DNA from: Candidatus Heimdallarchaeum aukensis
GTDB taxonomy: Archaea; Asgardarchaeota; Heimdallarchaeia; Heimdallarchaeales; Heimdallarchaeaceae
Assembly: GCA_021513695.1 (NCBI GenBank)
Contig: CP084166.1
Location: 416,001 to 480,000, forward strand
DNA length: 64,000 nucleotides
Direction of reading: 5' to 3'
Part shown: piece by piece, positions 236-48,505 of the stretch
Layout of the letters: each line of letters starts with the position of its first letter
Numbering within the stretch: the first letter of the stretch is position 1
Position numbers and translations under genes: made by a program
Notes under the pieces: generated by a model
Databases searched by the model: none
What the model was told of the DNA's origin: nothing
What the model saw: only the letters and a program-made list of their open reading frames with translations

Positions 236-250
236 GAATAGAGTAAAAAG

Positions 251-2464: not shown

Positions 2465-2655
2465 TAAAGAGTTTTTATTATTTTTAAGATATTAAAGCTA
2501 TTGGTTAAACAATTTTTGAAATAATAATATCTTTCTCTTTAAGTGATATTGTTTTTCTACTCTAATTTGAGTAAAATCTCCTATTTTAGTTGTAATTCTT
2601 TCATTATTTTTTTAAGTCAAGAGATAAACCAATTTAAAAATTTAAATAATGTTAG

Positions 2656-8445: not shown

Positions 8446-8620
8446 TTAAAAGCGACTAGTAAGTGTAAAAAATGCCTAGATTTCAATATTTAAACTTGTA
8501 TATTTAACAAGAAATAAAGAATCAGAATAAAAGTTAATGTTTAGTTGCTGAAATAAGAGCGTTGATTCTTTGTTAAAAACAAAAGATTGAACAAAATTTA
8601 TAATAGTTAATCAAATTAAA

Positions 8621-23063: not shown

Positions 23064-25118
23064 TTGAACAGAGCAAAAAAAATAGTACCTTTAGCTATAA
23101 TATTTGTTCAAATAATTCTTTTTACTAGCTTACAGTATAGTTCCGTCAATGCAGATGAGATTCAGTATAACGTAATTGGAATAAACATCAATTCCGATAG
23201 TGATTTTATTGATTTTGCAAGGACAGGAGCAGGAACTAAAGAAGATCCCTACATAATTTCAGGGTATCACTTTGAGTACTATGAAATTGGGATATTTATT
23301 TCACAAACAAGTAAATATGTCATAATAACTAACTGTTCTTTTTCTAACATCAAATATGAAGCAATAAGATTGTGGTCTGTCAAATCTGGAACAGTAAGAA
23401 TAGAAAACAATACGATTGTTAATGCAAAAGTGGGAATATTCCTATATGAAGCTCCAGATTGTACAATAATAAGTAATAAAATAATGAACTGTTCTGCTTT
23501 TGCAATTAAAGATGATTTTTCTAGAATAGGATCAAAAATTATGAACAATACACTTTATAACAACGAAGAAGGAATAACCATAAGTGAAACTAATTACACT
23601 CAAATACTGAATAATTACATAATTTACAGTAGAAATGTTGGCATTTATTTAATGGATACCACAAATGGAACAGAAATACATCATAACTTCTTCTTAAATG
23701 CTAACAAACCTGCTTTTACAACAGCTTGTAGTTATGGATATTATAATAATTGGACATCAAATTATTGGAGTGATTGGGATGGTTCAAGTCCATATAAAAT
23801 AGAGAGTAAATATGAACAAACTTTTGACACAAATCCTTTAAGTTTCGATGACTCTGATGGAGACAAAATAATCGATATTTTAGAACTTGTTATGGATATG
23901 AATCCAGAATCAACCGACAACGACTCTGATGAAATTTCAGATTATGATGAATTACTTATTTATGCAACAAACCCTAATACAATAGATACAGATGAAGATG
24001 GAATAACAGATTATGATGAAATATTTGTATATTTAACAAATCCGAATACACAAGATACAGATAAAGATGGAATAACAGATTATGATGAAGTATTTGTATA
24101 TCATACAGATCCGAATAAAAAAGACTCAGATGGTGATACCTTTTCAGATTATGAAGAAATATTACAGAAAACCAATCCTAGGAAAAGTTATAGTAATCCA
24201 ATTACAAAAAAATATTTGACAATCTTTCTTCCAATTTTTTCAGGTTTATTTGGTGTTGCATTTCTTTCAACTAGATATTACTCTAACTCAAAGAAAAACA
24301 AAATTAAGGTAATCTTTGACACATGGAATGAATTTTTCAATGAATGGGAAAAAATAATTGAACAGATAAATAAATCAGGAAATTCAGAAATAGAAGAAAT
24401 AATCTTTGAGGTAAATCAGTTAAAAGAAAAAAAAGTAGATGAGCTTGAATTTGTCAAAAAAATAGTAGCTCAATCAAAGAAACTACTTATAGAACATATG
24501 AAATTCAACGTTGAATTAAGTTTACAAAAATACAAAAAGCAAATAGAAATTTTTGTTAACCTACAGAGTAATTTGATTGATAAAGCTTTAATTACCCTTA
24601 ATCAAATAACAGAAAATACAATTCTTAATGCTGTAAAAGATTATTTGTGGATGAGATTCGTTTATTTGTATAGTACTACTAGCAAATCAGAAGCAATTAC
24701 CACTATTGAAGATGTGAGTGGAGATGCACTTTTTAACAAGTTCATTAAATTTTATAGATCTTTAGATTATGAGGAAAGACTGAAAAAAGAAATATCCAAC
24801 TTAGCAGAAGAAGTAAAATTTCAGATAAATCAAGCAAAAAAATATGAAATTGAGCTTATAGAAAGTTCAATAAACTCTATTATTGATTCTCTATTTGATA
24901 AATTTAATAAACTTGAGATCGATATAAATATTCTTCAAGAAAAAATCAAGGATATAAACATCGCTCAGATTAAACTAGATAATCCTTCCGAAACTTTTGT
25001 TAGAATCGAAAATATAGTAAAAGAAGAAGTGAACATACAAATGAAAGATAAAGAAGAGTCTATTCAGTCTAATCTTTTCTCTAATCAAGAAAAAGGGTTA
25101 AAGAATCCGCGTGAATAG
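23064..25118 (+). CDS. Type I membrane protein: right-handed beta-helix (NosD/PbH1-like) ectodomain, TSP3-like Ca-binding repeats, TM, about 290-aa cytoplasmic coiled-coil tail (paralog 1)
   Basis: 684 aa. Signal-like N-terminus. Parallel beta-helix repeats are present (IENNTIVNAKVGIFLY, IISNKIMNCSAFAI, LNNYIIYSRNVGIYL). TSP3-like repeats follow (DTDEDGITDYDE, DTDKDGITDYDE, DSDGDTFSDYEE). The TM segment is LTIFLPIFSGLFGVAFL. The tail is K/E-rich. Confidence 0.7.
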   Translation: MNRAKKIVPLAIIFVQIILFTSLQYSSVNADEIQYNVIGININSDSDFIDFARTGAGTKEDPYIISGYHFEYYEIGIFISQTSKYVIITNCSFSNIKYEAIRLWSVKSGTVRIENNTIVNAKVGIFLYEAPDCTIISNKIMNCSAFAIKDDFSRIGSKIMNNTLYNNEEGITISETNYTQILNNYIIYSRNVGIYLMDTTNGTEIHHNFFLNANKPAFTTACSYGYYNNWTSNYWSDWDGSSPYKIESKYEQTFDTNPLSFDDSDGDKIIDILELVMDMNPESTDNDSDEISDYDELLIYATNPNTIDTDEDGITDYDEIFVYLTNPNTQDTDKDGITDYDEVFVYHTDPNKKDSDGDTFSDYEEILQKTNPRKSYSNPITKKYLTIFLPIFSGLFGVAFLSTRYYSNSKKNKIKVIFDTWNEFFNEWEKIIEQINKSGNSEIEEIIFEVNQLKEKKVDELEFVKKIVAQSKKLLIEHMKFNVELSLQKYKKQIEIFVNLQSNLIDKALITLNQITENTILNAVKDYLWMRFVYLYSTTSKSEAITTIEDVSGDALFNKFIKFYRSLDYEERLKKEISNLAEEVKFQINQAKKYEIELIESSINSIIDSLFDKFNKLEIDINILQEKIKDINIAQIKLDNPSETFVRIENIVKEEVNIQMKDKEESIQSNLFSNQEKGLKNPRE

Positions 25119-25302: not shown

Positions 25303-27288
25303 TTGAAAATAAAAAAGTCAAAATCTAATCTGTTAGTTTTGTTTTTAATATTGTTCTTTACTAGTTCTACCTATTTTCATATAAAAGCAGATGATAATAC
25401 AAAATCAGGTTTTGCAATTCAAATCTCTTCTAACGATGAATTTTCTTTATTTTCAAAAGCAGGTAACGGAACTAAAGAAAATCCCTATGTTATCTCAGGA
25501 TATATCATTGAACACTTCGAAGCAGGTATTTTTATATCTCAAACAACCAAATTTTTCGTTATTACTAATTGTACTTTTCTTAATCTAAAATATGAAGCCA
25601 TACGAATAATGACAGTAGATGTTGGTAATGTTAGAATAGAAAATAATACGATTATTAATACAAAGTTTGGAATTTATATATATCAAGCTCCAAAAAGTAT
25701 TATTGTAAATAACAAAATCGTTAATTGCACTGTATCAGGAATAAGAGACGAATTTTCAGGAATAGGTTCTAAAATTGAAAACAACACTCTTTACAACAAT
25801 GAAGAAGCTATTACAATTTATTCAACAAATTATACTCAAATATTAAATAATTATATAATCAAAAGTCGGAAAGCTGGCATATTTCTATTGTGGAAACCAA
25901 ATGGAACAGAAATACATTATAACTTTATTCTAAACTCAGTAAAACCTTATATTGCAACTGCTCACAACGAAGGATTCAATAATAATTGGACATCAAATTA
26001 TTGGAATGACTGGAATGGAACAGGAGATTATCAAATAAGTAGCATTTATGAAACAACATTTGATAAAAATCCTTTGAGTTTTAATGACACTGATGGAGAT
26101 AAAATAATTGATATTTTGGAACTTGTAATGAATACAGATCCTTATGTGGTAGATAGCGACAATGACGGAATTGATGACTATAATGAATTGCTTAATTATG
26201 CAACAAACCCTAATGCCCAAGACAGTGATGGAGATGGAATATCTGATTATGACGAAATAATTGTATATACAACAAATCCCAATGCACAAGACACTGATGG
26301 AGATGGAATAACAGATTATGATGAAGTATTTGTTTATGGAACTGATGCAAAGAAACGAGATACTGATGGCGATACTTTTTCTGATTATGAAGAAATATTA
26401 ATGAAAACTAACCCTAAAAAAAGTTACAGTAATCCTATTATTAGAAGATATCTAACCATCTTAATTCCTACTTTTTCAGGAGTACTTGTTATTGCAGCTT
26501 TTTCAACTAGATACTATACCAACTCAAGGAGAAACAAAATTAAGGTGATTTTTGAAACATGGAATGAATTTTTCACTGAGTGGGAGAAAATAATTGAGCA
26601 GATAAACAATACAAAAAATTCAGAAGTTGAAGAAATAATATTTGAGGTAAAGGAACTTAAAAATAAGAAAATTGACGAACTTGAGCTTGTAAAGAAAATA
26701 ATCAGTCAAGCTAAAAAATTACTTATCAATCATATGAAGTTCAATGTTGAATTAAGCTTACAAAGATATAAAAAGCAAGCTGAAATTGTAATTAATCTAC
26801 AGAATAACTTAATTAGCCAAGCATTAACTGCTCTTAATCAAATAACAAAGAATACAATACTAAACGCTGTAAAAGATTACTTGTGGATGAGATTTGTTTA
26901 TCTATATAGCACAACAGAAAAATCTGAAGCCATAACTACTATTGAAGATATAAGTGGAGACACTCTTTTTAACAAGTTTGTCAAATTTTACAAATCATTA
27001 GATTATGAAGAGAGATTGAAAGAAGAAGTTGCTCATTTGGCAGAAGAAATCAAATATCAAATAAGAAAAGCCAAAGATTATGAAATTGATCTTTTAGAGA
27101 GTTCAATAAATTCAATTATAGACTCTTTACTTGATAAGTTTAACAAGCTTGAAGTTGATATTAATTTTCTTGAAGAAAAAATAAAAGACATTAGTGTTGA
27201 ACAGTCCAAGATCGATAATCCAAAAGATGCCTTCTTAAAAATAGAAAAAATAGTTAAAGAAGAAGTGAAAGAACAAAAAAGCAATTAA
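25303..27288 (+). CDS. Type I membrane protein: beta-helix ectodomain, TSP3-like repeats, TM, cytoplasmic coiled-coil tail (paralog 2)
   Basis: 661 aa and collinear with the 684-aa neighbour. Long identical stretches include DKIIDILELVM, NAVKDYLWMRFVYLYSTT and SINSIIDSL. Confidence 0.7.
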   Translation: MKIKKSKSNLLVLFLILFFTSSTYFHIKADDNTKSGFAIQISSNDEFSLFSKAGNGTKENPYVISGYIIEHFEAGIFISQTTKFFVITNCTFLNLKYEAIRIMTVDVGNVRIENNTIINTKFGIYIYQAPKSIIVNNKIVNCTVSGIRDEFSGIGSKIENNTLYNNEEAITIYSTNYTQILNNYIIKSRKAGIFLLWKPNGTEIHYNFILNSVKPYIATAHNEGFNNNWTSNYWNDWNGTGDYQISSIYETTFDKNPLSFNDTDGDKIIDILELVMNTDPYVVDSDNDGIDDYNELLNYATNPNAQDSDGDGISDYDEIIVYTTNPNAQDTDGDGITDYDEVFVYGTDAKKRDTDGDTFSDYEEILMKTNPKKSYSNPIIRRYLTILIPTFSGVLVIAAFSTRYYTNSRRNKIKVIFETWNEFFTEWEKIIEQINNTKNSEVEEIIFEVKELKNKKIDELELVKKIISQAKKLLINHMKFNVELSLQRYKKQAEIVINLQNNLISQALTALNQITKNTILNAVKDYLWMRFVYLYSTTEKSEAITTIEDISGDTLFNKFVKFYKSLDYEERLKEEVAHLAEEIKYQIRKAKDYEIDLLESSINSIIDSLLDKFNKLEVDINFLEEKIKDISVEQSKIDNPKDAFLKIEKIVKEEVKEQKSN

Positions 27289-27295
27289 AAAGTTT

Positions 27296-28411
27296 CTAAT
27301 GTATCCTTAGATTAGGTGGAATAAGGTTTAGAACTCCACAGGCTGGACATTCTATTACTCCATTTTCGTTCATGTCTTTTAGATCTAAGAGTTCTCCACA
27401 ATTCCCTGCACAATACATGGGAATTAATTCTGGTCCTTCCTTTACTCCTTCAATTGCACTATTAATCTTTGGAATAACTTCTTTGTAGAGCCTTTCGTGT
27501 ATTTGATCCACTTCATAACCGTAGACCCATATAGCTATATTTCCACTTTTTTCTTTTCCTGTGATTATAAGTTCAACTATAGAAATATCTTTTTTTCCGA
27601 TTTGGGAGACAAACATCAGGTTTCCAATGAAATTTTCACTTGTATCCATTACTATCTGTTCGTTCACTGTTTTATAAGAATCAAATAAGGTTTTTAAAAC
27701 TTTAAAAGCGACTTTTGGCTTTGCATGGAATTCTATTGATCTTCCTAATGAATCGAGCTTGTTGTTCTTTAATTCCATTAAAGCTTCATAATAACCATTT
27801 TCTATTCTTTCTTTAAGTATTAAAGCTCGTTCCTCTCTTTTTTTGTAAGCTTCATAGATTAGTTCTGTAAATTCAGCTTGTTTTTTCTTAACTATTGTAA
27901 ATTTCGTTCCTTCATGTATCTTTACAGGGGGAAAAGGCAAGCTACCTATTATTTGAGACTGAACAATATATGGTTCTCTTAAAGTTGAAGGAACAATAAA
28001 GCTTAACGAAGTACCGTAATCGATTATTTTTCCAATGTTTCCCTCTCTTACTATTGAACTCCAATCTCCTCCAGGAATTGTAACTGTATCTGGAACAGCC
28101 AAAAACACAACATCTGCTCTCGGGGGAGCAGAAGATATTAAAGCTGTTACTTCTTCTCCATCACCTATTTCTCCTGCAATTCTTTTGTCCAAGTATATTA
28201 AAGGATTTTTTCCTTTTTTTACTATCTCATTGATTTCAGCAAAAACTGAACTAGTCCTTCCAATTGTAGAAGAAAAGAGAAGAGCATATTTTTCATCATC
28301 TGCAAGTTCTAATTCAGTATCTTCTGGTAAAACTATACCTATACCGTTTCTAAAAACTAGTTTAACTTTACATGTAACCGTTTTCACATTCCTCTCTAAG
28401 AAAATCCTCAC
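27296..28411 (-). CDS. CDC48 N-domain-like (double-psi barrel plus beta-clam) protein with a C-terminal zinc ribbon and no ATPase domain (tentative)
   Basis: 371 aa with a GTG start. The segment IYLDKRIAGEIGDGEEVTALISSAPPRADVVFLAVP...VKIHEGTKFTIVK resembles the substrate/adaptor-binding N-domain of CDC48/VAT. The C-terminus has CAGNCGE...CPACG, i.e. two CxxC pairs. Confidence 0.35.
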   Translation of the reverse strand: MRIFLERNVKTVTCKVKLVFRNGIGIVLPEDTELELADDEKYALLFSSTIGRTSSVFAEINEIVKKGKNPLIYLDKRIAGEIGDGEEVTALISSAPPRADVVFLAVPDTVTIPGGDWSSIVREGNIGKIIDYGTSLSFIVPSTLREPYIVQSQIIGSLPFPPVKIHEGTKFTIVKKKQAEFTELIYEAYKKREERALILKERIENGYYEALMELKNNKLDSLGRSIEFHAKPKVAFKVLKTLFDSYKTVNEQIVMDTSENFIGNLMFVSQIGKKDISIVELIITGKEKSGNIAIWVYGYEVDQIHERLYKEVIPKINSAIEGVKEGPELIPMYCAGNCGELLDLKDMNENGVIECPACGVLNLIPPNLRIH

Positions 28412-29702: not shown

Positions 29703-30755
29703 ATGATGAGTAAACAAAAAAACAAAAAAACAAATAACACAGAAGTATACAAGAAAATTTTTCAGACGGCTCAAGATTCAATTTTTTTGCTTAATAAGAA
29801 TAATGTCTTTATAGATTGCAATCCTTATACTTGTGATATGTTTAATTGTGAGAAAGAAGATATTATTGGAACAACCCCAGTTGAATGGTCTCCTGAACTA
29901 CAGTTTGATGAAGTTCCTTCAGAAAAAAAGGCTAAACAATATATAAACAAAGCCTTTTCTGGAACACCTCAACGCTTTGAGTGGATTCACAAAAAAAAGA
30001 CAGGAGAATTATTTTATTGCGAAGTTTCTCTTAATAAGGTTGTAATAGATGGAGAAGATTTTTTACAAGCAATAGTACGTGAGATAACAGAAAAAAAATT
30101 TATTGAAGAAGTTGATTTAATATTCTCAAAAATAATTGACCATGATACCAGAAATATAGCCTTTGCAACTACTTCATACATCAATCTAATTCGAAATAAC
30201 TTTGAAGTAAATGAAAAACTAGATAATTATCTTAAAAGAATAGAAGATAATTTAGAAGAATTAATGAGTATTATAAATAAATTTTCAATTTTACATGAAG
30301 TCATGTATGAAACAAAAAAGCAAGTAATAAACCTTTATGAGACTGTTTGCAAAAGCATTCAACTTTTTGAAGAGAAATTAGGAGAAAAAAAAGTTGTAGT
30401 TGAAAACAAGATTAACAAAAATCACAAAGTAATTGCGGGGAATTTATTGATTGAAGTAATTAACAATTTAATAAGTAATTCCCTTCGGCACGCAAATGCT
30501 AATAAAGTTTTAATAAAAAGCAAAGAAACTCCAGAAAAAATAATTCTTGTTTTTGCAGATGATGGAAAAGGTTTTGACGAAAATTTATTACCTAATTTAT
30601 TTAAAGAAGGAATAAAAGGTCGTGATTCAAAAGGATCTGGTCTCGGTTTATATATTTCTAAAAAAATAATTAATTTATATGAAGGACATATTTCAGCAAG
30701 AAATGCAAGTAAAGGCGGAGCTGAATTTATTATTGAATTAGAAAAAGCAGATTGA
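29703..30755 (+). CDS. PAS-domain sensor histidine kinase (cytoplasmic)
   Basis: 350 aa. The N-terminus is PAS-like (IFQTAQDSIFLLNKNNVFIDCNPYTCDMFNC...). An H-box-like IDHDTRNIA is present. The HATPase_c motifs are N-box NLISNSLRHA, G1 DDGKGF and G2 GSGLGLYISKKI. Confidence 0.8.
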   Translation: MMSKQKNKKTNNTEVYKKIFQTAQDSIFLLNKNNVFIDCNPYTCDMFNCEKEDIIGTTPVEWSPELQFDEVPSEKKAKQYINKAFSGTPQRFEWIHKKKTGELFYCEVSLNKVVIDGEDFLQAIVREITEKKFIEEVDLIFSKIIDHDTRNIAFATTSYINLIRNNFEVNEKLDNYLKRIEDNLEELMSIINKFSILHEVMYETKKQVINLYETVCKSIQLFEEKLGEKKVVVENKINKNHKVIAGNLLIEVINNLISNSLRHANANKVLIKSKETPEKIILVFADDGKGFDENLLPNLFKEGIKGRDSKGSGLGLYISKKIINLYEGHISARNASKGGAEFIIELEKAD

Positions 30756-30829: not shown

Positions 30830-31693
30830 GTGAAAGATATGAATGATAAAAAAAGATACTTAAGGTTAAAGAATTTAAAAGAATTTGGAGTAGATATTAC
30901 TTGGGAAAATCTTTTTTCAAAAACCGTTTTATTTGCAGGAGTAGGTGGAGTAGGAAGTATTGCTGCTGAAATGTTTGCTCGATGTGGAATAGGAAAAATG
31001 ATTTTGATAGACTTAGATATTGTAGAAGAAGTAAATTTAAACAGACTATTTTATACTCAGGAAAATATAGGAAAGCCAAAAGTAGAAGTAGCAAAAGAAA
31101 TTTTAACAAAAATTAATAGAGACGTGGAAATTGAAACATATCATTCTGATATCTGTGCAATCGATTTTGAAGAAAAATTTGAACAATTGATAAAAGAATC
31201 AGATTTAGTTATTTCTAGTTTAGACAATATACCTGCAAGATTATATATTAATGAAAAATGCGTTCAACTAAGAAAAGAGTATATCGATTCAGGAGCAAGC
31301 AGATCAGGTTTAGGAGGATATGTTCATTTAGTTATTCCATTTAAAACTGCTTGCTATCAATGTACAGGTTCAATAGATTTAGGAGAAAAAAAGCATGGAG
31401 AACCATGTACTGCTTCTTTACCTTCTACAATAGCTATTATAGCTTCACTCACAGTGGAAATTGCACTTAAACATTTGTTAAATTTTGGAGTGATTCCTGA
31501 TTATATCGGTTTTAACGCTTTGACCGACCAGTATATAATACAAAAGATGAATAGAGATCCTTCATGTTATATATGTGGAGAAAGAAAAACGAATCTAAAA
31601 GAGCAGAGGAAATCTTTGCAAGAAATTGATGAATTAACGGAAGGAAAAACTGTAGATGAGTTAATTCAAAATTTGGATTCTCATGAGAAGTAG
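30830..31693 (+). CDS. UBA5-like (UFM1-activating type) E1 adenylation enzyme
   Basis: 287 aa with a GTG start at 30830; an alternative ATG is at 30839. It has the nucleotide loop [38 protein letters not shown] matches remembered human UBA5 [30 protein letters not shown]. The CxxC pairs ACYQC and SCYIC match the UBA5 zinc site. [11 protein letters not shown] (Cys193) matches the UBA5 catalytic-Cys context [18 protein letters not shown] matches UBA5 LKFLLNFG. Confidence 0.85.
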   Translation: [287 protein letters not shown]

Positions 31694-33079: not shown

Positions 33080-33661
33080 ATGGGGGTTCCAAAGATTAGC
33101 GACAGCGATACTTCAACAGTAAAAGGAAGATGGAGAGAAACACCTGCAGAAAGAGAACTAGTTAAGTTTCCAGAAGCTCTGATAAATATAACTCCAAAGC
33201 ATCCTAAATGGACAGAAAGAGTGAAAATAGAAATTTTAAATCTAGCAAAATATGTTCAGTTTTTACAAAGAAAAGGCGGGCATAGCTGGTTCTTTCTTAC
33301 ACCTAGTAAAGATCCTAAGTACAACTTTATGAAATGGGAAGGATATTTGCAAGTGGCTACAAGACCAGAAATTAGGTTTAAAATAGTAATTCTTTTACCT
33401 GGAAACTATCCAAAATCTTGCCCTAGGGCTTTCATTGAAGAAAGAGTAGTAGAATTTGCAGGAAAGATTTATACCAAAAATGTCTGGGAAGAGCCAAATG
33501 GAGAAAAATATTTGATGATATGTCATGACCACATGAGTGAAATTGACGATATTTGGGATCCAAGGTTAACAATTGCACACTTTTTCATAAGAGAAGTATT
33601 CTATTGGTGGGCAGCTCAACAGAACCTAATAATTGAACATTACGACAAAGGAAAGAAATAG
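33080..33661 (+). CDS. UFC1-like E2 conjugating enzyme
   Basis: 193 aa starting 11 nt after the Ubl stop. KWTERVKIEILNLAKYVQF parallels UFC1 LWVQRLKEEYQSLIRYVEN. LPGNYPKSCP parallels IPITYPTTAP. FAGKIY parallels KTAKMY. LMICHDHMSEIDDIW (Cys148) parallels the UFC1 active site KICLTDHFKPLW. LTIAHF parallels GLAHL. There is no canonical E2 HPN motif, as in UFC1. Confidence 0.7.
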   Translation: MGVPKISDSDTSTVKGRWRETPAERELVKFPEALINITPKHPKWTERVKIEILNLAKYVQFLQRKGGHSWFFLTPSKDPKYNFMKWEGYLQVATRPEIRFKIVILLPGNYPKSCPRAFIEERVVEFAGKIYTKNVWEEPNGEKYLMICHDHMSEIDDIWDPRLTIAHFFIREVFYWWAAQQNLIIEHYDKGKK

Positions 33662-33836
33662 ATTATTTTTAAGCTATTTTTACTTTTTAAATTTAGAAGT
33701 TTATTTTTATTAAATGGTGTTTACTTGAAAAGCAGAAGCAGAAATAAGAAAGAAGTTATGAGACTAAATAAATCAATGTAAAAAAACTGTTAAATTTAAA
33801 CAAAAAATTTAACTATTTTATCGTTTATATAATTTT

Positions 33837-34874
33837 TTGATGAGTAACAATTTAATATTGAATTTTTTAAATTTTCCACCAAATGTTGATTCTTTTACAG
33901 ATTATGAAAGTAAAATTCATAACGAAATTGAAAATCAATTCAATGATACACGTTCATTACTTCTTGTAATCATGAAGAGTTTGGATGTGGAAGACAAAAA
34001 ACGTTTTTTCAAAATTAAGAAATTTCTTGACAAATTAATTAGTGAGTTCAATTCCTTAAAAACTAGAATTTTTTCATTTGAGACAATTGAAGGAAAATTA
34101 TCTTTCAATCATGAAGTTGTTTTAATTTTAGATTTCTTAATTTTTGAACGTTTATTAGACTTCAATACTACTTTAAGAAATATAGAATCGATAGTTCTAC
34201 ATACTTTGGATAAAGATTACATTCAAGCTCAATCTTTTCAACTTCACAAATCTCTACAAAAACTAGAAAATTTAATTAATTTCCGTAAAGTAGCACATCA
34301 ACTTACTCCATCTGATCAATTGTTTCTGCAATTCTCAGAAGATTTCAGTGCTCAACTCTCTTATCTTGAATCAGTAGGCGTAATTCACCAGTTTGATGAA
34401 CTAAGTAAACCTTCTTTATTGGGAAAGAAAGCATATTATGACAAACTTTCTCAATTGTTTATCTCAACTTGCAATTCTCTACAAAAACAAAATAGATTAA
34501 ACATACCTTTTCTTGAATTTGTAGATGTTTTTCAAAAGAGATATCCAAATGTTGAGTTTGCTGTAGAAGATTTGGACAAAATTGCTTCAAGACTTTCAAA
34601 GACTGGGATGATTTCTGTAGTTACTAATACAGAGCAATCAAAGAAAATTATTATTGGCGAAGACATTGCTTTACAGCAAGAAATACTCAAATTAGCCAAA
34701 GGAAAAGGATACATTACACAAGAAGAATTGATTAGTTCTTTAGGTAAAAGTATAACGGAGATACAATTAACTATCAAGAAACTTGAAGATGCAGGACTAG
34801 CTATCGAAGACGATGACTATGCTTCAGGAAAGAGGATCTATTTTCCAGGTTTAGAAACAGAAATAAAAAGTTAG
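33837..34874 (+). CDS. Tandem winged-helix protein, EAP30 (Vps22/Vps36, ESCRT-II)-like, with DDRGK-type WH as an alternative
   Basis: 345 aa; the likely ATG is at 33840. The C-terminus ISVVTNTEQSKKIIIGEDIALQQEILKLAKGKGYITQEELISSLGKSITEIQLTIKKLEDAGLAIEDDDYASGKRIYFPGL aligns by eye with remembered human SNF8/Vps22 ...LIQSVPAELNMDHTVVLQLAEKNGYVTVSEIKASLKWETERARQVLEHLLKEGLAWLDLQAPGEAHYWLPAL. It also resembles the DDRGK1 WH (LEDLA...LLAEGTITGVIDDRGKFIYIT). A helical N-terminal half precedes it. Confidence 0.5.
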   Translation: MMSNNLILNFLNFPPNVDSFTDYESKIHNEIENQFNDTRSLLLVIMKSLDVEDKKRFFKIKKFLDKLISEFNSLKTRIFSFETIEGKLSFNHEVVLILDFLIFERLLDFNTTLRNIESIVLHTLDKDYIQAQSFQLHKSLQKLENLINFRKVAHQLTPSDQLFLQFSEDFSAQLSYLESVGVIHQFDELSKPSLLGKKAYYDKLSQLFISTCNSLQKQNRLNIPFLEFVDVFQKRYPNVEFAVEDLDKIASRLSKTGMISVVTNTEQSKKIIIGEDIALQQEILKLAKGKGYITQEELISSLGKSITEIQLTIKKLEDAGLAIEDDDYASGKRIYFPGLETEIKS

Positions 34875-34883
34875 GGTGAAAAA

Positions 34884-35531
34884 ATGTCATATATTGTAAA
34901 ATTGGGATTAGATGAAAAACAAGAAAATAATGTAACTAAAAGTGAACTTTCAGATGAACTTGTTGCATGGGTTTTTCCCTACGCTTTAGAAAAATGGGAA
35001 AAAATTAATTTAAAGAAAAGAAGGCAAATTTTGGTTAAACTCAATGAAAAAGCTCTCGTTTATAACAAAGAAAACTTCATTCAAGAGCTTTCAAGTGGCT
35101 TATACAAAGTTAATAGAAAAGAAGGTCTTGAAGATCACAAAATTGTTTTCTTAGAAAAAAACCTTATTACTCTTAAATGGGGCATCACTCAAATGCAAGG
35201 AGTTTTAACAAGTGACAATATAAAAGTTGGAGCTTCTGGAACAGTTTCTCTAACTTTATCAGGTGCAGAAGTATTTGTTTTAAACGTTCTGAAAAATAAA
35301 ACAAGTTTTTCAAAGAAAGAACTCCGCCCCATAATAAATAATATCGTCAAAAGTGCATTAAGAGAAGTTTTTCCACAGTATTCTATTGAAGAATTACAAA
35401 AATTAAGTAAAGACGAATTACTTATGTTCTTTGAACCAATAATTGTAGAAGAATTGCAAAAAATAGGTTTTAGTAGCCAAGATATATCATTGGGTGCATT
35501 GGGAATTCCTCCGGAGTATAGGATTTTCTAA
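34884..35531 (+). CDS. SPFH/Band-7-like (YdjI-type) domain protein (tentative)
   Basis: 215 aa starting 9 nt after the previous stop. ITLKWGITQ...ASGTVSLTLSG...FSKKELRPIINNIVKSALREVF...GFSSQDISLGALGIPPE follows the pattern I recall for the Band_7_1 family (e.g. B. subtilis YdjI: FTVRWGTKQ...ANGTFKFKV...GFQIMSFNYPQE). Confidence 0.35.
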   Translation: MSYIVKLGLDEKQENNVTKSELSDELVAWVFPYALEKWEKINLKKRRQILVKLNEKALVYNKENFIQELSSGLYKVNRKEGLEDHKIVFLEKNLITLKWGITQMQGVLTSDNIKVGASGTVSLTLSGAEVFVLNVLKNKTSFSKKELRPIINNIVKSALREVFPQYSIEELQKLSKDELLMFFEPIIVEELQKIGFSSQDISLGALGIPPEYRIF

Positions 35532-35647: not shown

Positions 35648-36514
35648 TTGAAAAAATATTCTTGTTTCATGTCATTAGAATACAGTTGTATACTTCCACA
35701 TGGTTTTAATCTTATACCAGATCTTAATCCAGAACAAGATGAAAAATCAGCTAAACTCGCTTTAGAAATTTCTTCTATTGCTGAACAAATAGTTAACAAA
35801 GACCCTGAAGTAATAATTATTGCGTCTCCTCATAATCTGCGAATAAGCGAAAATATAGGCATTGTTACTACAGAATGGTTGAAGGGCTCTTATATAGAAA
35901 AAGATACAGAAAAAAGTGCAGAAATGGAATGGAAGTGTGACAGAAAACATGCTTCTAAACTCTACATTAGGGCAAAAAATGAAGGTTTACCTGTAGTTGC
36001 TGTTAATTTTGGAACAAGTGAGGGCCCATTATCGAGTATACCTTTAGATTGGGGAACATTTATTCCTCTTTACTTCATCAAAAAAGCTTACGAGAAAAGT
36101 AAGAAAACAATTCCTCAGGTAGTTCTAATCACCCCTAGCAGAGACATAGATTGGAAGCATTTAGTGAAATTAGGAGAGTTAATATATCTATTGAGCATTG
36201 AGGAAAATAAGAAAACAGTTTTCATAGCAAGTGCTGATCAAGCTCATGCACATGATGCAAATGGTCCTTACGGATTTGATCCTGCAGCAAAAAGTTTTGA
36301 CGACTTGATTTGCAAAATGATTACTTCAAACTCGTTAAATGATTTATTAGGAATAGATCAAGGATTAATTGAACACTCAAAACCAGATAGTCTGTGGCAG
36401 ATACTTATTCTTGCAGGAATAGCTGTTAAAGCAAACATGGTCAACAAGTCTTGTGTCTATGAGTGTCCAACTTACTATGGAATGATTGCTGCCTCATTTG
36501 AAAGAAAAATATAA
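35648..36514 (+). CDS. Class III extradiol dioxygenase subunit B (LigB)-like protein (tentative)
   Basis: 288 aa; the real start is possibly the ATG at 35669. His-containing motifs CILPHG, IIIASPHNL and ASADQAHAHD resemble the LigB/DODA family metal ligands. Confidence 0.4.
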   Translation: MKKYSCFMSLEYSCILPHGFNLIPDLNPEQDEKSAKLALEISSIAEQIVNKDPEVIIIASPHNLRISENIGIVTTEWLKGSYIEKDTEKSAEMEWKCDRKHASKLYIRAKNEGLPVVAVNFGTSEGPLSSIPLDWGTFIPLYFIKKAYEKSKKTIPQVVLITPSRDIDWKHLVKLGELIYLLSIEENKKTVFIASADQAHAHDANGPYGFDPAAKSFDDLICKMITSNSLNDLLGIDQGLIEHSKPDSLWQILILAGIAVKANMVNKSCVYECPTYYGMIAASFERKI

Positions 36515-36545: not shown

Positions 36546-37571
36546 ATGCACAACAAAGAAAAAAGAAAACAATTATTCCTTTTTATTTTTGCCTTAATAA
36601 TCAGCATAACACTCGCAATAGTGCTTACTCTAGTAGAAAAACAAGTTTCAGTTCCTAAAATGATTATTTTTGGTTTTTCCTCTTTTTTAAATATCATAAC
36701 AATTTGTATCTTTACTTTTCCTTACATTAACAAAATAGTTATAGAGTATCTAAAAGGAAGAAAAATATACTATCTTTTCTTATTAGTAGTAATTATCAAT
36801 CCATTGTTAAATTGGATATTTATTGATTCACTAAATGGATTTATAGTTGCTTTTCTATCTTATTTAGCTTGGATAGCTTTACCTGTTATAGCTTTTATGC
36901 AAGCATATGTAATTGATAAAATCAAGTTTAAATCATTACTACTTGTGGCAGGAATATTAATTTTAGCATATGGTTTTGATTCAAGACTTATGTATTCTGT
37001 TCTTTCCGGTTTTGATGAAGGAAAATACAGTTTTAGCTCATTATGGGTAAGCGCAATAATTCTTACAATATACTCTATTCAGTTAGAAAAAGCAGAAATA
37101 AGATTAAGGTGGACACTAAATTTAAAGAAGCTAATATTATCTCTCGGTTCTTTAGTCGTATTGTTTGCTGTTATAGTTCCTTTAGGCTTATATACTGAAT
37201 TTCTAGTCTGGTCTCCTGATTGGCCAGGATTTGCATTATTTATCCTTGCATTTATAGGTATATGGTTTACAATTGCTCTTCCAGAAGAACTAATAGCTCG
37301 CTCAATAATCCAATATCAATTATCAGAGAAAACTGTTCCTAAAAGTAGTAAATATTACAAATATCACAAATGGATTATATTGGTAGTAGCGTCCTTTATC
37401 TTCGGATTAAGTCACCACAACAACACAAGTGCAGAATTCGCTTGGATTTACATAGGCTTTGCTACTTTTGCAGGAATTTTATATGGTATATGTTGGAGAT
37501 ATGGTAATTTAGCTACAGCAATGTTAACACATACTCTAGTAGACTGGATTTGGCAACTGTTATTTAGATAG
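36546..37571 (+). CDS. CPBP (CAAX protease / bacteriocin-processing) family intramembrane metalloprotease
   Basis: 341 aa and polytopic. It has the three CPBP motifs: EELIARS (EExxxR), FGLSHHNN (FxxxH) and HTLVDW (HxxxD). Confidence 0.7.
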   Translation: MHNKEKRKQLFLFIFALIISITLAIVLTLVEKQVSVPKMIIFGFSSFLNIITICIFTFPYINKIVIEYLKGRKIYYLFLLVVIINPLLNWIFIDSLNGFIVAFLSYLAWIALPVIAFMQAYVIDKIKFKSLLLVAGILILAYGFDSRLMYSVLSGFDEGKYSFSSLWVSAIILTIYSIQLEKAEIRLRWTLNLKKLILSLGSLVVLFAVIVPLGLYTEFLVWSPDWPGFALFILAFIGIWFTIALPEELIARSIIQYQLSEKTVPKSSKYYKYHKWIILVVASFIFGLSHHNNTSAEFAWIYIGFATFAGILYGICWRYGNLATAMLTHTLVDWIWQLLFR

Positions 37572-37573
37572 AT

Positions 37574-38716
37574 TTACATCCTTTCTACTTCTTCTAAATA
37601 ATCAAAAAATTGAACTTTTTCTGATGTCTCAGAATCTTGCATTCTTTTTATTAATCTCTTTTTTGCAACCTCAATTGCTTTTTTTGAGTTATCTATACCT
37701 ATCCATCTTCTATCTAGTTCTTGAGCAGCAAGTAGAGTTGTGCCAGAACCGCAAAAACAATCAAGAACAATGCTATCTTTGTTAGAAGAAATAGCAATTA
37801 GAAGTTTTAACAATTCAATGTTTTTTTCTGTAGGGTAGCTGGGATATTGAGGATCTTTAAACTCTAGAATGTCTTGATATTTCATTCCTTTTTTCTCATC
37901 TGCATAAATTTTCTTCCTAGGAACACCTGTTTTTGACCATTCAATTAGTCCTTCTTTATCTAGTTTTTCTAGTTCTTCAGGAGAACTTCGCCAGTGTCGT
38001 CCTTTAGGCGGTAAAATTCCTTTCCACTCTTTTCCTGTCAAACCATTTTTTGTTTCTCCAGGAGCATGAAGAGGAATGGTGGTATATCTTCTTCCATCGC
38101 TATCAATTTTTTTGAAAAGACGATTAATGTCTTCTTCAGTAAAAGGTTTTTTTTGTTCATTCCAAATATAATCTTTAGTCTTTGAATAGAATAATATCAT
38201 GTCTTTAATATTACCAAAAGCTTTTCGATGAAAATTTTTGGGATTACACTTTATTCTTGACAAATCATTGATAAAATTCTCTTCTCCAAATATTTCGTCC
38301 ATTATGATTTTAACATAGTGACCTATTTTGTAGTCAGTATGGACATAGATAGAAGCTTGTTTTGACATTAATTCTCTTATTAAAACCAATCTTTCTCTAA
38401 GAAATTCAAGAAATTCATACCCCGTTACAATATCAGAAAAAGCTACATTCGAAGACAAACTGTTGCTAATTGTGTTAGCCCTATCTTCTGAAATTCTAAA
38501 AACCTTATTTGTAGAAAAAGGAGGATCTATATAGACCAAATCTATTTTTTCTTTATATTTTTCAGATTCTAGTAAATGTTTCATAACTCTCAAATTATCT
38601 CCAAAAATGAGTTTAGAACTAGTATTATTACTTCCGTTTATTGACTTTAATTCAATTTGAGGAATTGACTTGAATATCTCCTCTTTTGTCTTCTTGTTAG
38701 GATATTCTAAATACAT
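37574..38716 (-). CDS. Beta-class N6-adenine/N4-cytosine DNA methyltransferase (orphan, Mod-like)
   Basis: 380 aa. Motif IV is DPPF (LVYIDPPFSTNKVF). Motif I is near the C-terminus (DCFCGSGTTLLAAQELDRRWIGIDNS). No Res or endonuclease partner is nearby. Confidence 0.8.
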   Translation of the reverse strand: MYLEYPNKKTKEEIFKSIPQIELKSINGSNNTSSKLIFGDNLRVMKHLLESEKYKEKIDLVYIDPPFSTNKVFRISEDRANTISNSLSSNVAFSDIVTGYEFLEFLRERLVLIRELMSKQASIYVHTDYKIGHYVKIIMDEIFGEENFINDLSRIKCNPKNFHRKAFGNIKDMILFYSKTKDYIWNEQKKPFTEEDINRLFKKIDSDGRRYTTIPLHAPGETKNGLTGKEWKGILPPKGRHWRSSPEELEKLDKEGLIEWSKTGVPRKKIYADEKKGMKYQDILEFKDPQYPSYPTEKNIELLKLLIAISSNKDSIVLDCFCGSGTTLLAAQELDRRWIGIDNSKKAIEVAKKRLIKRMQDSETSEKVQFFDYLEEVERM

Positions 38717-45535: not shown

Positions 45536-48505
45536 ATGAAAATAAAATCCATGAAATATAAAAAATATTTTTTCTTTGTACTTTTCACGGTCTTAGTTGT
45601 ATTCGCTTATCCACGAAGCTTTTACAACGAAGTTGAAGCAGGATATACACAAACAACTCCTATCAACATATATTCTGATTCAGACTTAGAAAGTTATTCA
45701 TTTCCTGGTACAGGAACTGAAGCTGACCCTTATATTATAGAAAATTATAACATCACAGTTACTAGTGGTTATGCTATTTCAATTAGAGCAACAACAAAAT
45801 ATGTCATTATAAGAAATAACTATATTATAGGGTCTGATACTGGCAATGGAATGTACATTTTTAGTGTTGCACCAAACACTGTTCATATAATAAATAACAC
45901 CGTTGTCAATGCTTATACTGGAATTTATGTAAATACTGAAGGACAAATGATAATAGAGAATAATACTGTAACAGGAGGAGAGTCTGCCTATTATTTCTCT
46001 TCAACTGGAAATATTAATTTTACTAACAATAAGGCAATCAATCCTAAAAAATATGGTTTAAGAGCTTATAATTTAAATAACTTCAGAATGGCTAATAGTA
46101 CTTTAATAGGCGCTGGAGTAGGTTTTTCTACAAGTAGTACATCCTTTTATGATAATTACTATTTTGATAACAATTCAATTAATAACAAGCCTTTGATGGT
46201 AGTTTATTCTTCATCAGATCTTGTTTTTGACAAAAATCAAAATGGTCAGATATTAATTATAGACAGCACGAACATCACAGTCAAAAATTATGTCTCAAGC
46301 GAAAATACTTTTGGAGTTTATTCCTACTATTCTGATAAAATAACAATAGAGGATAGTTTTTTTTCAAAAGCAGTTTCTTCAATTAAAGCAGAATATTCTT
46401 CAAATATTGAAATAAAGAATGTAAAAATTAGTAACACATACGAGTATGGAATGAATATTCGCAATATAGATGGAATTTCGATTGAAGATACTATAGTTGA
46501 AGATTCTAATAAAGGGATATATGCAAGAGGAATAAATAATTTAGAAATAACAAATACTACTTCCACTAATCATGAAAATGATGGCTTGTACCTGTGGTAT
46601 GTAAATAATGCAAATATTTCTAGTTCGTTTTTCGCAAATTGTAAGAACGGATTAGTTGCAAGAAGTTCAACTAACATAAGATTAGAAGAAAACTCAGCTT
46701 CAAACTGTAGTTATACAAGTTTTACTCTAATTTATCTTGAGAATGTAACAGTAAAAGATAACTTAATGGAATCTGGGATAAAACTTAACCATTACAACGT
46801 TGAATGGAGCTACGAATTCAGTAATAATACAATAAAAGGAAAACCTTTAGGTGTTTTTTATAATAAAACAGGGTTAACTATTGACTCAACTTATTCGCAA
46901 TTAATACTAGTAAATTGTACAGACTTTATAATCAATAATGCGTATTTTTCTCAAGTAGTAAGAGGAATTTACATTCTTTACGGAGAAAATATTTCTATAA
47001 ATAATATCTCGATGTACAACGTCTTTGAAGGTGGACTATTAGTAGAGTATTCCAAGAAAATAAGCATTCAAGATTTAAATGTAAATGGAGTAATAGGTAA
47101 TGAAGCTTATGGTATTTACACTTATAATGTAACTTCGGTGTTTCTTAATCATTCTATTTTTACACTGTGCGGAGATTATCCTTTTTATGGAGAAGAGATT
47201 GCAGATGCTATAATTTCTTATAATATATTTAATAATAGCACTAATAATGTGTTTTACATTTACAATGGCTTTAATCTTTCTATTTTTGGAAATGATTTTT
47301 TGTTTAATGATTATGCACTTTATGTTGAATTTTCAAACGAAATAGAATTCTACAACCTTGAATTAGAAATGGGAAATTGTTACTCTGAATGGAACGGTTC
47401 AACTAGATATCCTATTGAAACAGATAGTGGCTACATTTATGATGAATTTCCATTAAATGATACTGACAGAGATAAGCTTAACGACAGTTTAGAAGTGTAT
47501 AGTTACAATACTGACCCATTTCTTGCAGATACAGATTACGATATACTCAGTGATTATGACGAAATAATGAACTATGGAACTGACCCAAACTCGGTAGATT
47601 CAGATAATGATAATATGCCAGACAAATGGGAAATAGAAAATAATCTTAACCCAATCGAAGATGACTCCTCAGAAGATCCTGACGATGATGATTTGTCTAA
47701 CATAGAAGAATATAATTCACACACCAATCCCAATTCTGCTGATACAGATTCTGATGGTATGCCTGATGGTTGGGAAGTGGAAAATGAATTAAATCCTTTG
47801 ATAGATGATGCTGATGAAGACCCAGATAATGATGATCTAACTAATTTAGAAGAATACTCTAATAATACTGACCCTAACTCTGCAGATACAGATTCTGACG
47901 GTATGCCTGACAAATGGGAGGTAGATAATAATCTTGACCCAACTAAAGATGATGCTGATGAAGACCCAGATAATGATGATCTAACTAATTTAGAAGAATA
48001 CACTAACAACACAGACCCTAACACCAATGACACAGATGGTGATGGTATGTTTGATGGTTGGGAAGTAGATAATAGTCTTGATCCTCTAACTGATGATGCT
48101 GATGAAGATCCTGATAATGATGGACTAACAAATCTAGAAGAACATACAAACAATACTAACCCAAATGATGAAGATACGGATTCAGATGGTATGCCTGATG
48201 GATGGGAAGTGGAAAATGGATTAAATCCTCTGATAGATGATGCTGAGGAAGACCCAGATAATGATAGATTAACTAACATACAAGAATACTTGAATAACAC
48301 AGATCCCAACAATCCAGATACTGATGGAGATGGATATTCAGACTCTGAAGAAATAGAGAAAGGCTCTAACCCTACCGATGCTACAGATAAACCTCTTAAT
48401 TTGGGATTGATTCTTGGTTTATCCATTGGTATTCCAACTGTTCTTATTGCAGTCTTCTTATTTATAATGAAGAAAAAAGGTTTACTCTTCTTTAAGAAGA
48501 AGTAA
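45536..48505 (+). CDS. Large surface protein: extended right-handed beta-helix, five MPDxWE/TSP3-like Ca-binding modules, C-terminal TM anchor
   Basis: 989 aa. It has a signal-like N-terminus and many PbH1-type repeats (IINNTVVNAYTGIYV, IENNTVTGGESAYYF, ...). Five 48-aa modules follow (DTDSDGMPDGWEVENELNPLIDDADEDPDNDDLTNLEEY). The C-terminal TM is LILGLSIGIPTVLIAVFLFIM, followed by KKK. Confidence 0.75.
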   Translation: MKIKSMKYKKYFFFVLFTVLVVFAYPRSFYNEVEAGYTQTTPINIYSDSDLESYSFPGTGTEADPYIIENYNITVTSGYAISIRATTKYVIIRNNYIIGSDTGNGMYIFSVAPNTVHIINNTVVNAYTGIYVNTEGQMIIENNTVTGGESAYYFSSTGNINFTNNKAINPKKYGLRAYNLNNFRMANSTLIGAGVGFSTSSTSFYDNYYFDNNSINNKPLMVVYSSSDLVFDKNQNGQILIIDSTNITVKNYVSSENTFGVYSYYSDKITIEDSFFSKAVSSIKAEYSSNIEIKNVKISNTYEYGMNIRNIDGISIEDTIVEDSNKGIYARGINNLEITNTTSTNHENDGLYLWYVNNANISSSFFANCKNGLVARSSTNIRLEENSASNCSYTSFTLIYLENVTVKDNLMESGIKLNHYNVEWSYEFSNNTIKGKPLGVFYNKTGLTIDSTYSQLILVNCTDFIINNAYFSQVVRGIYILYGENISINNISMYNVFEGGLLVEYSKKISIQDLNVNGVIGNEAYGIYTYNVTSVFLNHSIFTLCGDYPFYGEEIADAIISYNIFNNSTNNVFYIYNGFNLSIFGNDFLFNDYALYVEFSNEIEFYNLELEMGNCYSEWNGSTRYPIETDSGYIYDEFPLNDTDRDKLNDSLEVYSYNTDPFLADTDYDILSDYDEIMNYGTDPNSVDSDNDNMPDKWEIENNLNPIEDDSSEDPDDDDLSNIEEYNSHTNPNSADTDSDGMPDGWEVENELNPLIDDADEDPDNDDLTNLEEYSNNTDPNSADTDSDGMPDKWEVDNNLDPTKDDADEDPDNDDLTNLEEYTNNTDPNTNDTDGDGMFDGWEVDNSLDPLTDDADEDPDNDGLTNLEEHTNNTNPNDEDTDSDGMPDGWEVENGLNPLIDDAEEDPDNDRLTNIQEYLNNTDPNNPDTDGDGYSDSEEIEKGSNPTDATDKPLNLGLILGLSIGIPTVLIAVFLFIMKKKGLLFFKKK
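47588..48307 (+). repeat. Five tandem 144-nt coding repeats (48-aa acidic Ca-binding modules)
   Basis: The period was measured from gatacagattctga at 47741 and 47885, a 144-nt offset. Five protein-level copies were read. The copies are diverged, not identical. Confidence 0.75.

Follow-up and report, generated by a model that had tools for sequence, protein, structure and literature searches.

The locus considered here lies in a 64-kb stretch of the Candidatus Heimdallarchaeum aukensis genome (contig CP084166.1, positions 416,001 to 480,000; hereafter the window). It raises the question of why a winged-helix (WH) protein resembling the ESCRT-II subunit Vps22 should be encoded, together with an SPFH/Band-7-type protein, directly downstream of genes for a UFM1-type conjugation cascade. 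The WH protein, designated EAP30L, is 100% identical to UJG41203.1, which carries only the public label 'hypothetical protein K9W45_01760'. The reading that we favour, with a little more credence than doubt, is that EAP30L and its SPFH neighbour form a dedicated two-protein module, an ESCRT-II-like adaptor on an SPFH membrane platform, which would be fed or controlled by Ufm1-like conjugation. The coordinates, lengths and 9-nt and 175-nt gaps given in the initial annotation of this DNA were all correct, and the gene pair is laid out as follows, numbered from the first base of the window.

33662..33836, forward strand: intergenic gap of 175 nt between the stop codon (at 33661) of the gene for the conjugating enzyme (E2) and EAP30L
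33837..34874, forward strand: EAP30L open reading frame (ORF), 345 amino acids (aa) from a TTG codon; the public start, an ATG at 33840, gives 344 aa
33840..34394, forward strand: N-terminal domain of EAP30L, ~185 residues, subfamily-specific, helical and four-helix-bundle-like
34395..34853, forward strand: linker with a conserved KPxLLGKxxYYxKL motif, then the tandem WH core of EAP30L
34875..34883, forward strand: spacer of 9 nt
34884..35531, forward strand: SPFH/Band-7 gene, 215 aa

As judged by its sequence, EAP30L is a tandem WH protein of the EAP30/Vps22-36 family. It matched the Pfam family EAP30 (PF04157) over residues 128-326 at 34.2 bits (cutoff 26.8, E 2.8e-08), and in 14 of 14 EAP30L relatives the match exceeded the cutoff and spanned both WH domains (best E 4e-14). 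A word-based homologue search with the 345-aa protein found only two proteins, and exhaustive profile searching was needed to recover these relatives. When the EAP30L family profile was compared with the PDB, E values were 6.7e-14 for human SNF8/Vps22, 5.8e-07 for yeast Vps22 and 7.9e-06 for human Vps36. The aligned SNF8 chains were 3cuq_A and 2zme_A, and the alignment of the C-terminal WH includes ...LQLAEKNGYVTVSEIKASLKWETERARQVLEHLLKEGLAWLDLQAPGEAHYWLPAL. Vps22 and Vps36 also ranked top in fold searches with a model of EAP30L. The tandem WH core that characterises the EAP30/Vps22-Vps36 family comprises WH1 at residues ~197-273 and WH2 at ~277-335 and ends in the family motif YFPGL, of which F335 and P336 are invariant across the 14 relatives. 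The initial annotation had aligned this protein by eye with the second WH domain of SNF8, and that alignment has the same register as the one obtained with the family profile; the ESCRT-II-like tandem WH identity that it proposed is borne out by the PF04157 score.

Its further suggestion, that the same region resembles the DDRGK1 WH domain equally well, was not reproduced. EAP30L gave no match at E<=1 to PF09756 (DDRGK) or the UFL1 family, no match to either at E<=0.01 was found in 14 members of the EAP30L family, and UFL1 or DDRGK1 chains were absent from the PDB sequence and fold search results for EAP30L. The DDRGK profile and N-terminal transmembrane (TM) anchor typical of DDRGK1/UFBP1 were not seen in EAP30L, nor were a UFL1 match to the WH array by profile or fold and an E2-binding N-terminal helix. 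Homology to DDRGK1 or UFL1 was rejected because no Pfam, PDB sequence or fold match was found.

A WH protein could also be a DNA-binding regulator of the neighbouring operon, with a likeness to ESCRT-II at the level of the fold only. The best helix-turn-helix family for EAP30L was HTH_24, at 20.7 bits under its cutoff of 21.9, and all NCBIfam matches had E>=0.0078, far under their cutoffs. A generic MarR/ArsR-type WH factor, which the initial annotation had named as a competing identity, was rejected on these sub-threshold scores and on the combination of a tandem WH with a 185-aa helical domain. The regulator reading is highly improbable given the EAP30 profile match above the curated cutoff over both WH domains in all relatives, the family-specific YFPGL C-terminus, an acidic isoelectric point (pI 5.55) and the tight coupling to SPFH genes described below.

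The AlphaFold2 (AF2) model of EAP30L (pLDDT 70.6) consists of four long N-terminal helices (residues 17-47, 51-72, 90-122 and 126-155) followed by two WH domains. The N-terminal domain gave generic four-helix-bundle matches only, with no significant Vps28-C, steadiness-box or Snf7 signal. With respect to the N-terminal helical region of Vps22/Vps36, the Pfam alignment of EAP30L begins at profile position 20, yet an hhalign comparison with canonical Asgard Vps22-like proteins (probability 99.9%, E 6.8e-33) covers residues 186-343 only, and the PDB alignment covers SNF8 residues 66-217 only. Residues 1-185 therefore look like a domain different from the Vps22 N-terminal helical region, and are treated as a subfamily-specific helical domain because homology to canonical Vps22 is limited to the WH core. 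There is no TM helix in EAP30L (maximum Kyte-Doolittle 19-residue score 1.31).

The relationship to canonical Vps22 could be examined in the sister genome of H. endolithica (L005), which carries an EAP30L orthologue that is 97% identical and lies in the same six-gene context. Between the two species the gene has a pN/pS of 0.032 at a pS of 0.45, and is under strong purifying selection. The H. endolithica EAP30L locus is at ~0.52-0.55 Mb, in a position separate from the complete ubiquitin-ESCRT cluster at ~1.70-1.72 Mb, which encodes an Arf-like GTPase, a UEV-Vps23-Vps28 fusion, a 241-aa protein annotated as EAP30, an activating enzyme (E1), ubiquitin, Vps25, Vps4 and two Snf7 proteins. EAP30L is 25% identical to the canonical H. 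endolithica Vps22-like protein (P0074) in the WH core only, and human SNF8 is matched from end to end by the canonical profile (1e-34) but only in its WH tandem by that of EAP30L (3e-11). On these comparisons, EAP30L is a divergent Vps22 paralogue and not the ESCRT-II subunit of the organism. The genome scan for EAP30 paralogues used a 10-sequence alignment, and in a neighbour-joining (NJ) tree of the WH core, type A was resolved (100%), A+C was resolved weakly (65%) and deep relationships were not.

Like canonical Vps22/SNF8 (PF04157; ~240 aa in Asgard archaea), EAP30L has the tandem WH core and a YFPGL-type C-terminal motif; canonical Asgard Vps22 is encoded near E1 and ubiquitin, and EAP30L likewise near a cascade for conjugation of a ubiquitin-like protein (Ubl). 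In one distant locus (L034) a relative of EAP30L adjoins Vps25-like, Snf7 and Vps4 genes. EAP30L differs from canonical Vps22 in being ~100 residues longer, in bearing an unrelated four-helix-bundle domain at its N terminus, in being encoded away from the ESCRT cluster and in being accompanied by a cascade of the UFM1 type rather than the ubiquitin type. It could nevertheless be a second canonical ESCRT-II subunit, a Vps36 analogue that forms a heterodimer with the 241-aa Vps22-like protein and bears an extra N-terminal targeting domain. In eukaryotes Vps36 is itself a Vps22 paralogue that has diverged and carries an extension at its N terminus, Hatano et al. (PMC9192718) suggested that the monomeric Odin Vps22 has a partner yet to be discovered, and the Vps25-like neighbour in L034 would suit such a role. 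We nonetheless regard this as improbable, since EAP30L is nearer to Vps22 than to Vps36 in the PDB comparison (6.7e-14 against 7.9e-06), its N-terminal domain is a helical bundle and not GLUE/PH, the N-terminal helical region of Vps22 is not detectably conserved in it, and in Heimdallarchaeum it is never found beside the canonical cluster.

The 215-aa product of the next gene is, from its profile matches and composition, a short soluble SPFH/Band-7 domain protein. Pfam Band_7 (PF01145) was matched at 45.9 bits (cutoff 23.6) over residues 54-213 of 215, as anticipated when the gene was first annotated as SPFH/Band-7-like, and Band_7_1 (PF13421) at 28.0 bits (cutoff 24). A search of PDB sequences gave no significant match. 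The AF2 model is poor (pLDDT 57) and was used as corroboration only; the top 31 Foldseek matches to it in the PDB are all of the SPFH family (HflK/C at 3.8e-05, stomatin, flotillin, erlin, prohibitin, QmcA and MVP). The protein has a pI of 8.6 and no hydrophobic segment (maximum 19-residue Kyte-Doolittle score 1.37), and its gene is under strong purifying selection (pN/pS 0.074, pS 0.42 against H. endolithica). The SPFH partners in L036-L039 are longer (295-499 aa) and have long C-terminal extensions, of which that in L036 appears coiled-coil-like by eye.

Loci for comparison were sampled opportunistically and included 17 of the EAP30L type, 16 centred on canonical 241-aa Vps22-like genes and six (L007-L012) of a 'solo' paralogue, designated P0015-type. 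A profile of the partner SPFH protein found a copy in 17/17 loci with EAP30L types, in 0/16 canonical loci and in 0/6 loci of the solo paralogue. The coupling to the SPFH gene is tight in 11 of the 12 distinct lineages with EAP30L types that were sampled, the exception being L032/33. The spacer between the two genes is a 9-41 nt gap in eight Heimdallarchaeaceae-type loci and measures 12 nt in L036, 17 nt in L037, 10 nt in L038 and 20 nt in L039, and in L034 and L035 the genes overlap by 11 nt. In the window, a Shine-Dalgarno-like GGTGA at 34875-34879, 4 nt before the SPFH ATG, and the 9-nt spacer that contains it fit a bicistronic EAP30L-SPFH unit. By this gene-order evidence, EAP30L and SPFH are a conserved gene pair, tight and ancient, and the deepest conserved linkage in the neighbourhood. 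The arrangements found in the more distant loci are as follows.

L036 (EAP30L 18% identical to that of the window): reverse strand Ubl, E2, homologue of a 371-aa zinc-ribbon protein, and JAB; forward strand EAP30L, SPFH (499 aa) and E1
L039 (EAP30L 23-24% identical): forward strand EAP30L, EAP30L, SPFH (483 aa) and E2; reverse strand E1, JAB and Ubl; forward strand 371-aa homologue and a second E2-like gene
L034/35: phosphatase, kinase, FHA, EAP30L and SPFH, adjoining Vps25-like (PF05871 29.7 bits, cutoff 27), Snf7 and MIT-AAA Vps4
L032/33: Snf7, kinase, FHA, SPFH, RING-like protein and EAP30L, the SPFH gene being 1.2 kb upstream on the opposite strand
L037: EAP30L directly before SPFH, then a PCI/Zn-ribbon protein
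L038: EAP30L directly before SPFH, with a ThiF E1, a Ubl that terminates in GG and a UQ_con E2 nearby

A 'solo' state of the whole Heimdall clade of 24-27% identical proteins was rejected: solo is one of three paralogues, and the other two stand in tandem in a cluster with the full cascade and SPFH (L039). The tandem EAP30-like paralogues of this Heimdall-group lineage (348 and 346 aa) occupy L039 590-2887, before the SPFH gene. The P0015-type solo paralogue adjoins CYTH, GH31 and GNAT genes. The cascade of L038, in which the Ubl is 109 aa long and ends ...IKGG, is of the ubiquitin type rather than the UFM1 type, and a PCI-domain-like protein follows the EAP30L/SPFH pair in both L038 (6001-13002) and L037 (150-3429).

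The genes surrounding the pair in the window are listed below.

27296-28411, reverse strand: 371-aa protein, no known domain, four-Cys zinc ribbon at the C terminus
29703-30755, forward strand: PAS histidine kinase
30830-31693, forward strand: ThiF-type, UBA5-like E1, 287 aa
31707-32765, forward strand: JAMM/MPN metalloprotease, 352 aa
32805-33068, forward strand: Ufm1-like Ubl, 87 aa, C-terminal end ...RGVVG
33080-33661, forward strand: UFC1-like E2, 193 aa, putative catalytic Cys in MICHDHM
35648-36514, forward strand: LigB-like gene
36546-37571, forward strand: Rce1-like gene

The E1 matched Pfam ThiF at 173.7 bits and, in a phmmer search of the PDB, was closer to UBA5 (2.4e-51) than to MoeB (8.1e-25). 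The E2 passed the cutoff for UFC1 narrowly (26.1 bits, cutoff 25), and its profile matched Leishmania UFC1 (3kpa) weakly in the PDB (E 0.18). The Ubl matched Ufm1 below the cutoff (13.7 bits, E 0.061, cutoff 27) and gave no match in a PDB profile search; its C-terminal NRGVVG is invariant in seven lineages, with one further residue in L005 and two in L036. The protease matched Prok-JAB (33.3 bits) and JAB (32.5 bits) and is of the JAMM type, unlike the UFSP cysteine protease of the eukaryotic UFM1 system. These matches support the UFM1-type assignment of the cascade made in the initial annotation: the E1 is clearly UBA5-like, the E2 marginal, the Ubl sub-threshold but with a ...VG terminus, and the protease JAMM. 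Among relatives of the Heimdallarchaeaceae type that keep the full cascade the E2 is 68-95% identical, and a metagenome scan with the E2 alignment returned one locus.

Some further features of these genes were noted. The JAMM protease has a C-terminal extension of ~220 residues (~130-352) with no family match, and its gene evolves faster than any other in the cluster (36-40% identity in relatives whose E2 retains 68-69%). In three relatives, coding conservation of the E2 gene continues upstream of the first in-frame ATG/GTG/TTG (L005 9239-9820, L001 2831-3388, L006 2232-2798), and the ATG used in the window is replaced in H. endolithica, which suggests either that the start codon is non-canonical or that it was lost very recently in these relatives. 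The PAS/HATPase histidine kinase is 75 nt upstream of E1; of the relatives, only the closest, L005, has it in this place (77% identity), and it does not belong to the conserved neighbourhood.

The four-gene make-up of E1, JAB, Ubl and E2 resembles that of bacterial Ubl-conjugating defence operons, and DNA methyltransferase genes are found nearby. The cascade might thus be a Bil/CBASS-like anti-virus conjugation system, with EAP30L and SPFH as its sensor or effector. PADLOC analysis gave matches of E1 and JAB to generic CBASS Cap2/Cap3 models only, with no significant match for the Ubl, E2, EAP30L or SPFH proteins, and a known defence system was rejected on this result. Moreover, the E1 is specifically UBA5-like, and the syntenic position of the cluster, with the LigB-like gene downstream, is kept in lineages in which EAP30L identity falls to 42%, which points to vertical inheritance and not to a mobile island. 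A role in defence is accordingly given very little credence.

How firmly the pair is tied to the cascade can be judged from the relatives. The order E1-JAMM-Ubl-E2-EAP30L-SPFH is collinear in six lineages (window/L005, L001/2, L006, L029, L030 and L031; in L030 the contig ends within the SPFH gene). Leaving aside the window/L005 pair, the other five lineages show identities to the window of 41-66% for EAP30L, 68-90% for E2 and 64-90% for the Ubl. The 371-aa protein had no Pfam match and no PDB sequence match, and the four Cys of its zinc ribbon are invariant in homologues. These homologues are found beside the cluster in L005, L030 and L031, within the cascade operon in L036 (phmmer 4.2e-38) and adjoining the cascade in L039 (2.3e-42), and on this distribution the 371-aa protein is the seventh conserved component of the neighbourhood. 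The same seven components recur in divergent order in L036 and in a third order in L039. Linkage that survives rearrangement in this way is strong evidence of a functional connection, and conservation of the link to the Ubl operon in relatives, by which the initial annotation had proposed to judge its own proposal, was thus found in the six collinear lineages as well as in L036 and L039. In Heimdall-group lineages the pair is recurrently coupled to a seven-component UFM1-type neighbourhood.

The coupling is not without exception. In L004 there is no E1, JAMM or Ubl gene upstream and the EAP30L-SPFH pair is intact. An E2 pseudogene is present at L004 4097-4471, in which the C-terminal 93 codons are intact, including the Cys motif MICHEHM, and the N-terminal half contains stops.

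The pair and the cascade may also be separate units of transcription. The gap between E2 and EAP30L is ~85-220 nt in relatives, as compared with 10-40 nt within the cascade. In the window, T-runs directly follow the E2 stop codon and an A/T box, AAAAAATTTAACTA, is located about 25-45 nt before the EAP30L ATG; alignment with three relatives showed that the T-runs and the TTTAA-type box are conserved. The two genes probably make up a bicistronic unit of their own, co-directional with the cascade and with its own promoter after a terminator, these signals being suggestive only in DNA of ~30% GC.

A recognisable ligase (E3) was not found among the proteins encoded in the cluster, and EAP30L, alone or with SPFH and/or the 371-aa protein, could be the missing E3 of the cascade. 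It would then be a non-catalytic WH scaffold that binds the charged UFC1-like E2 and activates aminolysis, a functional analogue of UFL1-DDRGK1/UFBP1 but no detectable homologue. The eukaryotic UFM1 E3 is a membrane-tethered, scaffold-type ligase of tandem WH domains that works with UBA5, UFC1 and UFM1 and is positioned at the membrane (PMC9627666), and the E3 reading is kept because of this architecture. EAP30L similarly consists of WH repeats, is genetically tied to UBA5-, UFC1- and Ufm1-like genes and to an SPFH gene of the membrane-scaffold type, and remains tied to the UFC1-like E2 in three different gene orders. In addition, Picchianti et al. (2023) reported UFL1 and DDRGK1 to be of Asgard archaeal origin, with homologues of both in Asgard archaea and with UFC1 and UFM1 in eukaryotes only (PMC10183829). 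Apart from the generic WH fold, no sequence or structural homology of EAP30L to UFL1 or DDRGK1 is detectable, and EAP30L differs from them in lacking a TM anchor and any evident partial-WH complementation. The adaptor reading was ranked above the E3 scaffold because the pair is also found beside ESCRT-III/Vps4 where there is no Ubl cascade (L034/35), because it survives loss of the adjacent E2 (L004), and because the 371-aa Zn-ribbon protein, which could itself be an E3 or adaptor, is at least as good a candidate for the E3. The E3 reading is thus considered unlikely, but serious enough to be kept in view.

The favoured module of an ESCRT-II-like adaptor and an SPFH platform would work as follows. 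The SPFH partner would provide an oligomeric membrane-proximal platform to which EAP30L binds, with the WH tandem serving as a protein-protein adaptor as in ESCRT-II. In Heimdallarchaeaceae, the module would be the membrane-side arm of a UFM1-type conjugation system consisting of the UBA5-like E1, the UFC1-like E2, the Ufm1-like Ubl, the JAMM protease and the 371-aa Zn-ribbon protein. The cascade may either modify the module or deliver Ubl-tagged proteins to it, and the module may hand over to Vps25, ESCRT-III and Vps4, which are encoded beside the pair in another lineage. We infer the physical interaction of EAP30L with SPFH, the association with a membrane and the direction in which information passes between cascade and module. 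Cryo-electron tomography of an Asgard archaeon has revealed SPFH-like baskets at the membrane's inner surface, and the membrane-platform part of the proposal is therefore plausible.

Several observations weigh against this module. Classical SPFH cages are built by a membrane anchor and a C-terminal coiled coil, and the SPFH protein of the window stops at the end of the SPFH domain, with neither TM anchor nor C-terminal coiled coil; as EAP30L likewise has no TM segment, membrane association of the pair is an assumption. In line with the initial annotation, no Pfam match to Vps25, Vps4 or Snf7 was found among the scanned window ORFs of at least 110 aa (~15 of which had no Pfam match at all; an overlapping reverse-strand ORF at 47572-48426 was left out of the scan), and an association with Vps25, ESCRT-III and Vps4 genes was seen only in the distant relative L034/35. 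The 175-nt gap with its T-runs suggests that the pair is transcribed apart from the cascade. Furthermore, the P0015-like paralogue stands alone among unrelated genes (L007-L012), the crude NJ tree leaves a single clade of SPFH-linked EAP30-like proteins unsettled, and confidence in the two AF2 models is moderate to poor.

The adaptor and E3 roles might also be joined. EAP30L and SPFH, possibly with the 371-aa protein, would then be an archaeal membrane-tethered WH E3/adaptor of a complete pre-eukaryotic UFM1-type pathway, with ESCRT-II and UFL1-DDRGK1 derived from one class of WH adaptors. We hold this as a doubtful, speculative possibility. If it were true, ancestral Asgard WH adaptors would have coupled Ubl conjugation to membrane platforms and ESCRT-III, and different lineages would plug one EAP30-like/SPFH output module into either Ubl conjugation or FHA/kinase/phosphatase signalling.

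Contextual links between SPFH and ESCRT-family genes have precedents in methanogens, where the 'Meth_adaptin' ESCRT loci include SPFH, and in Bacillus subtilis, where YdjI is linked with PspA (PMC10936438). As in these systems, an SPFH/Band-7 gene is found here in a conserved neighbourhood with ESCRT-family components, and the shared neighbourhoods suggest that an SPFH platform localises the remodelling machinery. Unlike in these systems, the genes belong to an Asgard lineage, SPFH is partnered directly by an ESCRT-II-like EAP30 protein and not by ESCRT-III/PspA or an adaptin-like protein, and the SPFH protein of the window is a minimal domain of 215 aa that lacks a TM segment, a coiled coil and a Zn ribbon. 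The L034/35 locus is reminiscent of the euryarchaeal 'Main' and 'Halo_FHA' ESCRT loci, which include FHA/STK/STP genes and the WH protein arCOG09748 (PMC10936438): in both, FHA, kinase, phosphatase, Snf7 and Vps4 genes surround a protein with N-terminal helices and a C-terminal WH. The L034 protein differs from arCOG09748, which was compared by description, in being a Pfam-detectable EAP30 with a Vps25-like neighbour and an SPFH partner.

A single Vps22/36-like gene per Asgard genome was described by Hatano et al. (2022) (PMC9192718), and Makarova et al. (2024), whose asCOG 'Vps22#' covers the canonical Asgard orthologues, noted in general terms that Asgard ESCRT-II varies in paralogue number and domain organisation (PMC10936438). 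According to Koestlbacher et al. (2026), Ufm1 has homologues in nine Asgard clades; their text is silent on UFC1, UBA5 and gene neighbourhoods (PMC12962969). In the searchable literature we found neither the EAP30-like/SPFH module nor a link between it and a UFM1-type cascade described. What is new is a specific second Vps22 paralogue lineage, marked by an N-terminal domain of its own and by its obligate SPFH partner, and a single neighbourhood that joins ESCRT, SPFH membrane scaffolds and a UFM1-type cascade. Such a neighbourhood bears on how ESCRT-II, the UFM1 ligase and the control of membranes by ubiquitin-like proteins originated. The questions that it raises are how a WH-scaffold UFM1 ligase arose and how ubiquitin-like tagging was first coupled to membrane remodelling, and the cluster offers a small soluble set of proteins (E1, E2, Ubl, JAMM, EAP30-like, SPFH and Zn-ribbon) with which these origins can be studied.

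Several other features of the window and of the sampled loci are recorded. A 1929-aa ORF on the reverse strand at 2656-8445 encodes two UvrA_inter and two UvrA_DNA-bind domains, and is an apparent tandem-duplicated or fused UvrA. N6/N4 DNA methyltransferase genes lie on the reverse strand at 12526-13422 and 37574-38716, no adjacent restriction endonuclease was identified for them, and the latter matched a PADLOC Type II MTase model at 7.5e-174. In five large secreted or surface proteins, encoded at 15395-17251 (reverse strand), 23064-25118, 25303-27288, 45536-48505 and 57796-62244 (reverse strand), bacterial TSP3 calcium-binding repeats occur together with repeats of the beta-helix/NosD, FG-GAP or beta-propeller type. 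In L010 (5512-8535) and L008 (1490-4510), a ~1007-aa protein is encoded ~1.4 kb upstream of the solo EAP30-like paralogue and has a weak C-terminal RING match (zf-RING_2, E 0.003, under cutoff). In L004, three neighbouring genes (204-3995, and 7597-8307 and 8345-9211 on the reverse strand) encode proteins with a very similar C-terminal tail of ~60 residues (…LNQF(R/T)P..PV.L.R…LELEQVFI(K/R)…W), one of which is a giant TSP3-repeat surface protein; by eye, the shared tail resembles a winged-helix or PCI-like module, small and cytoplasmic.

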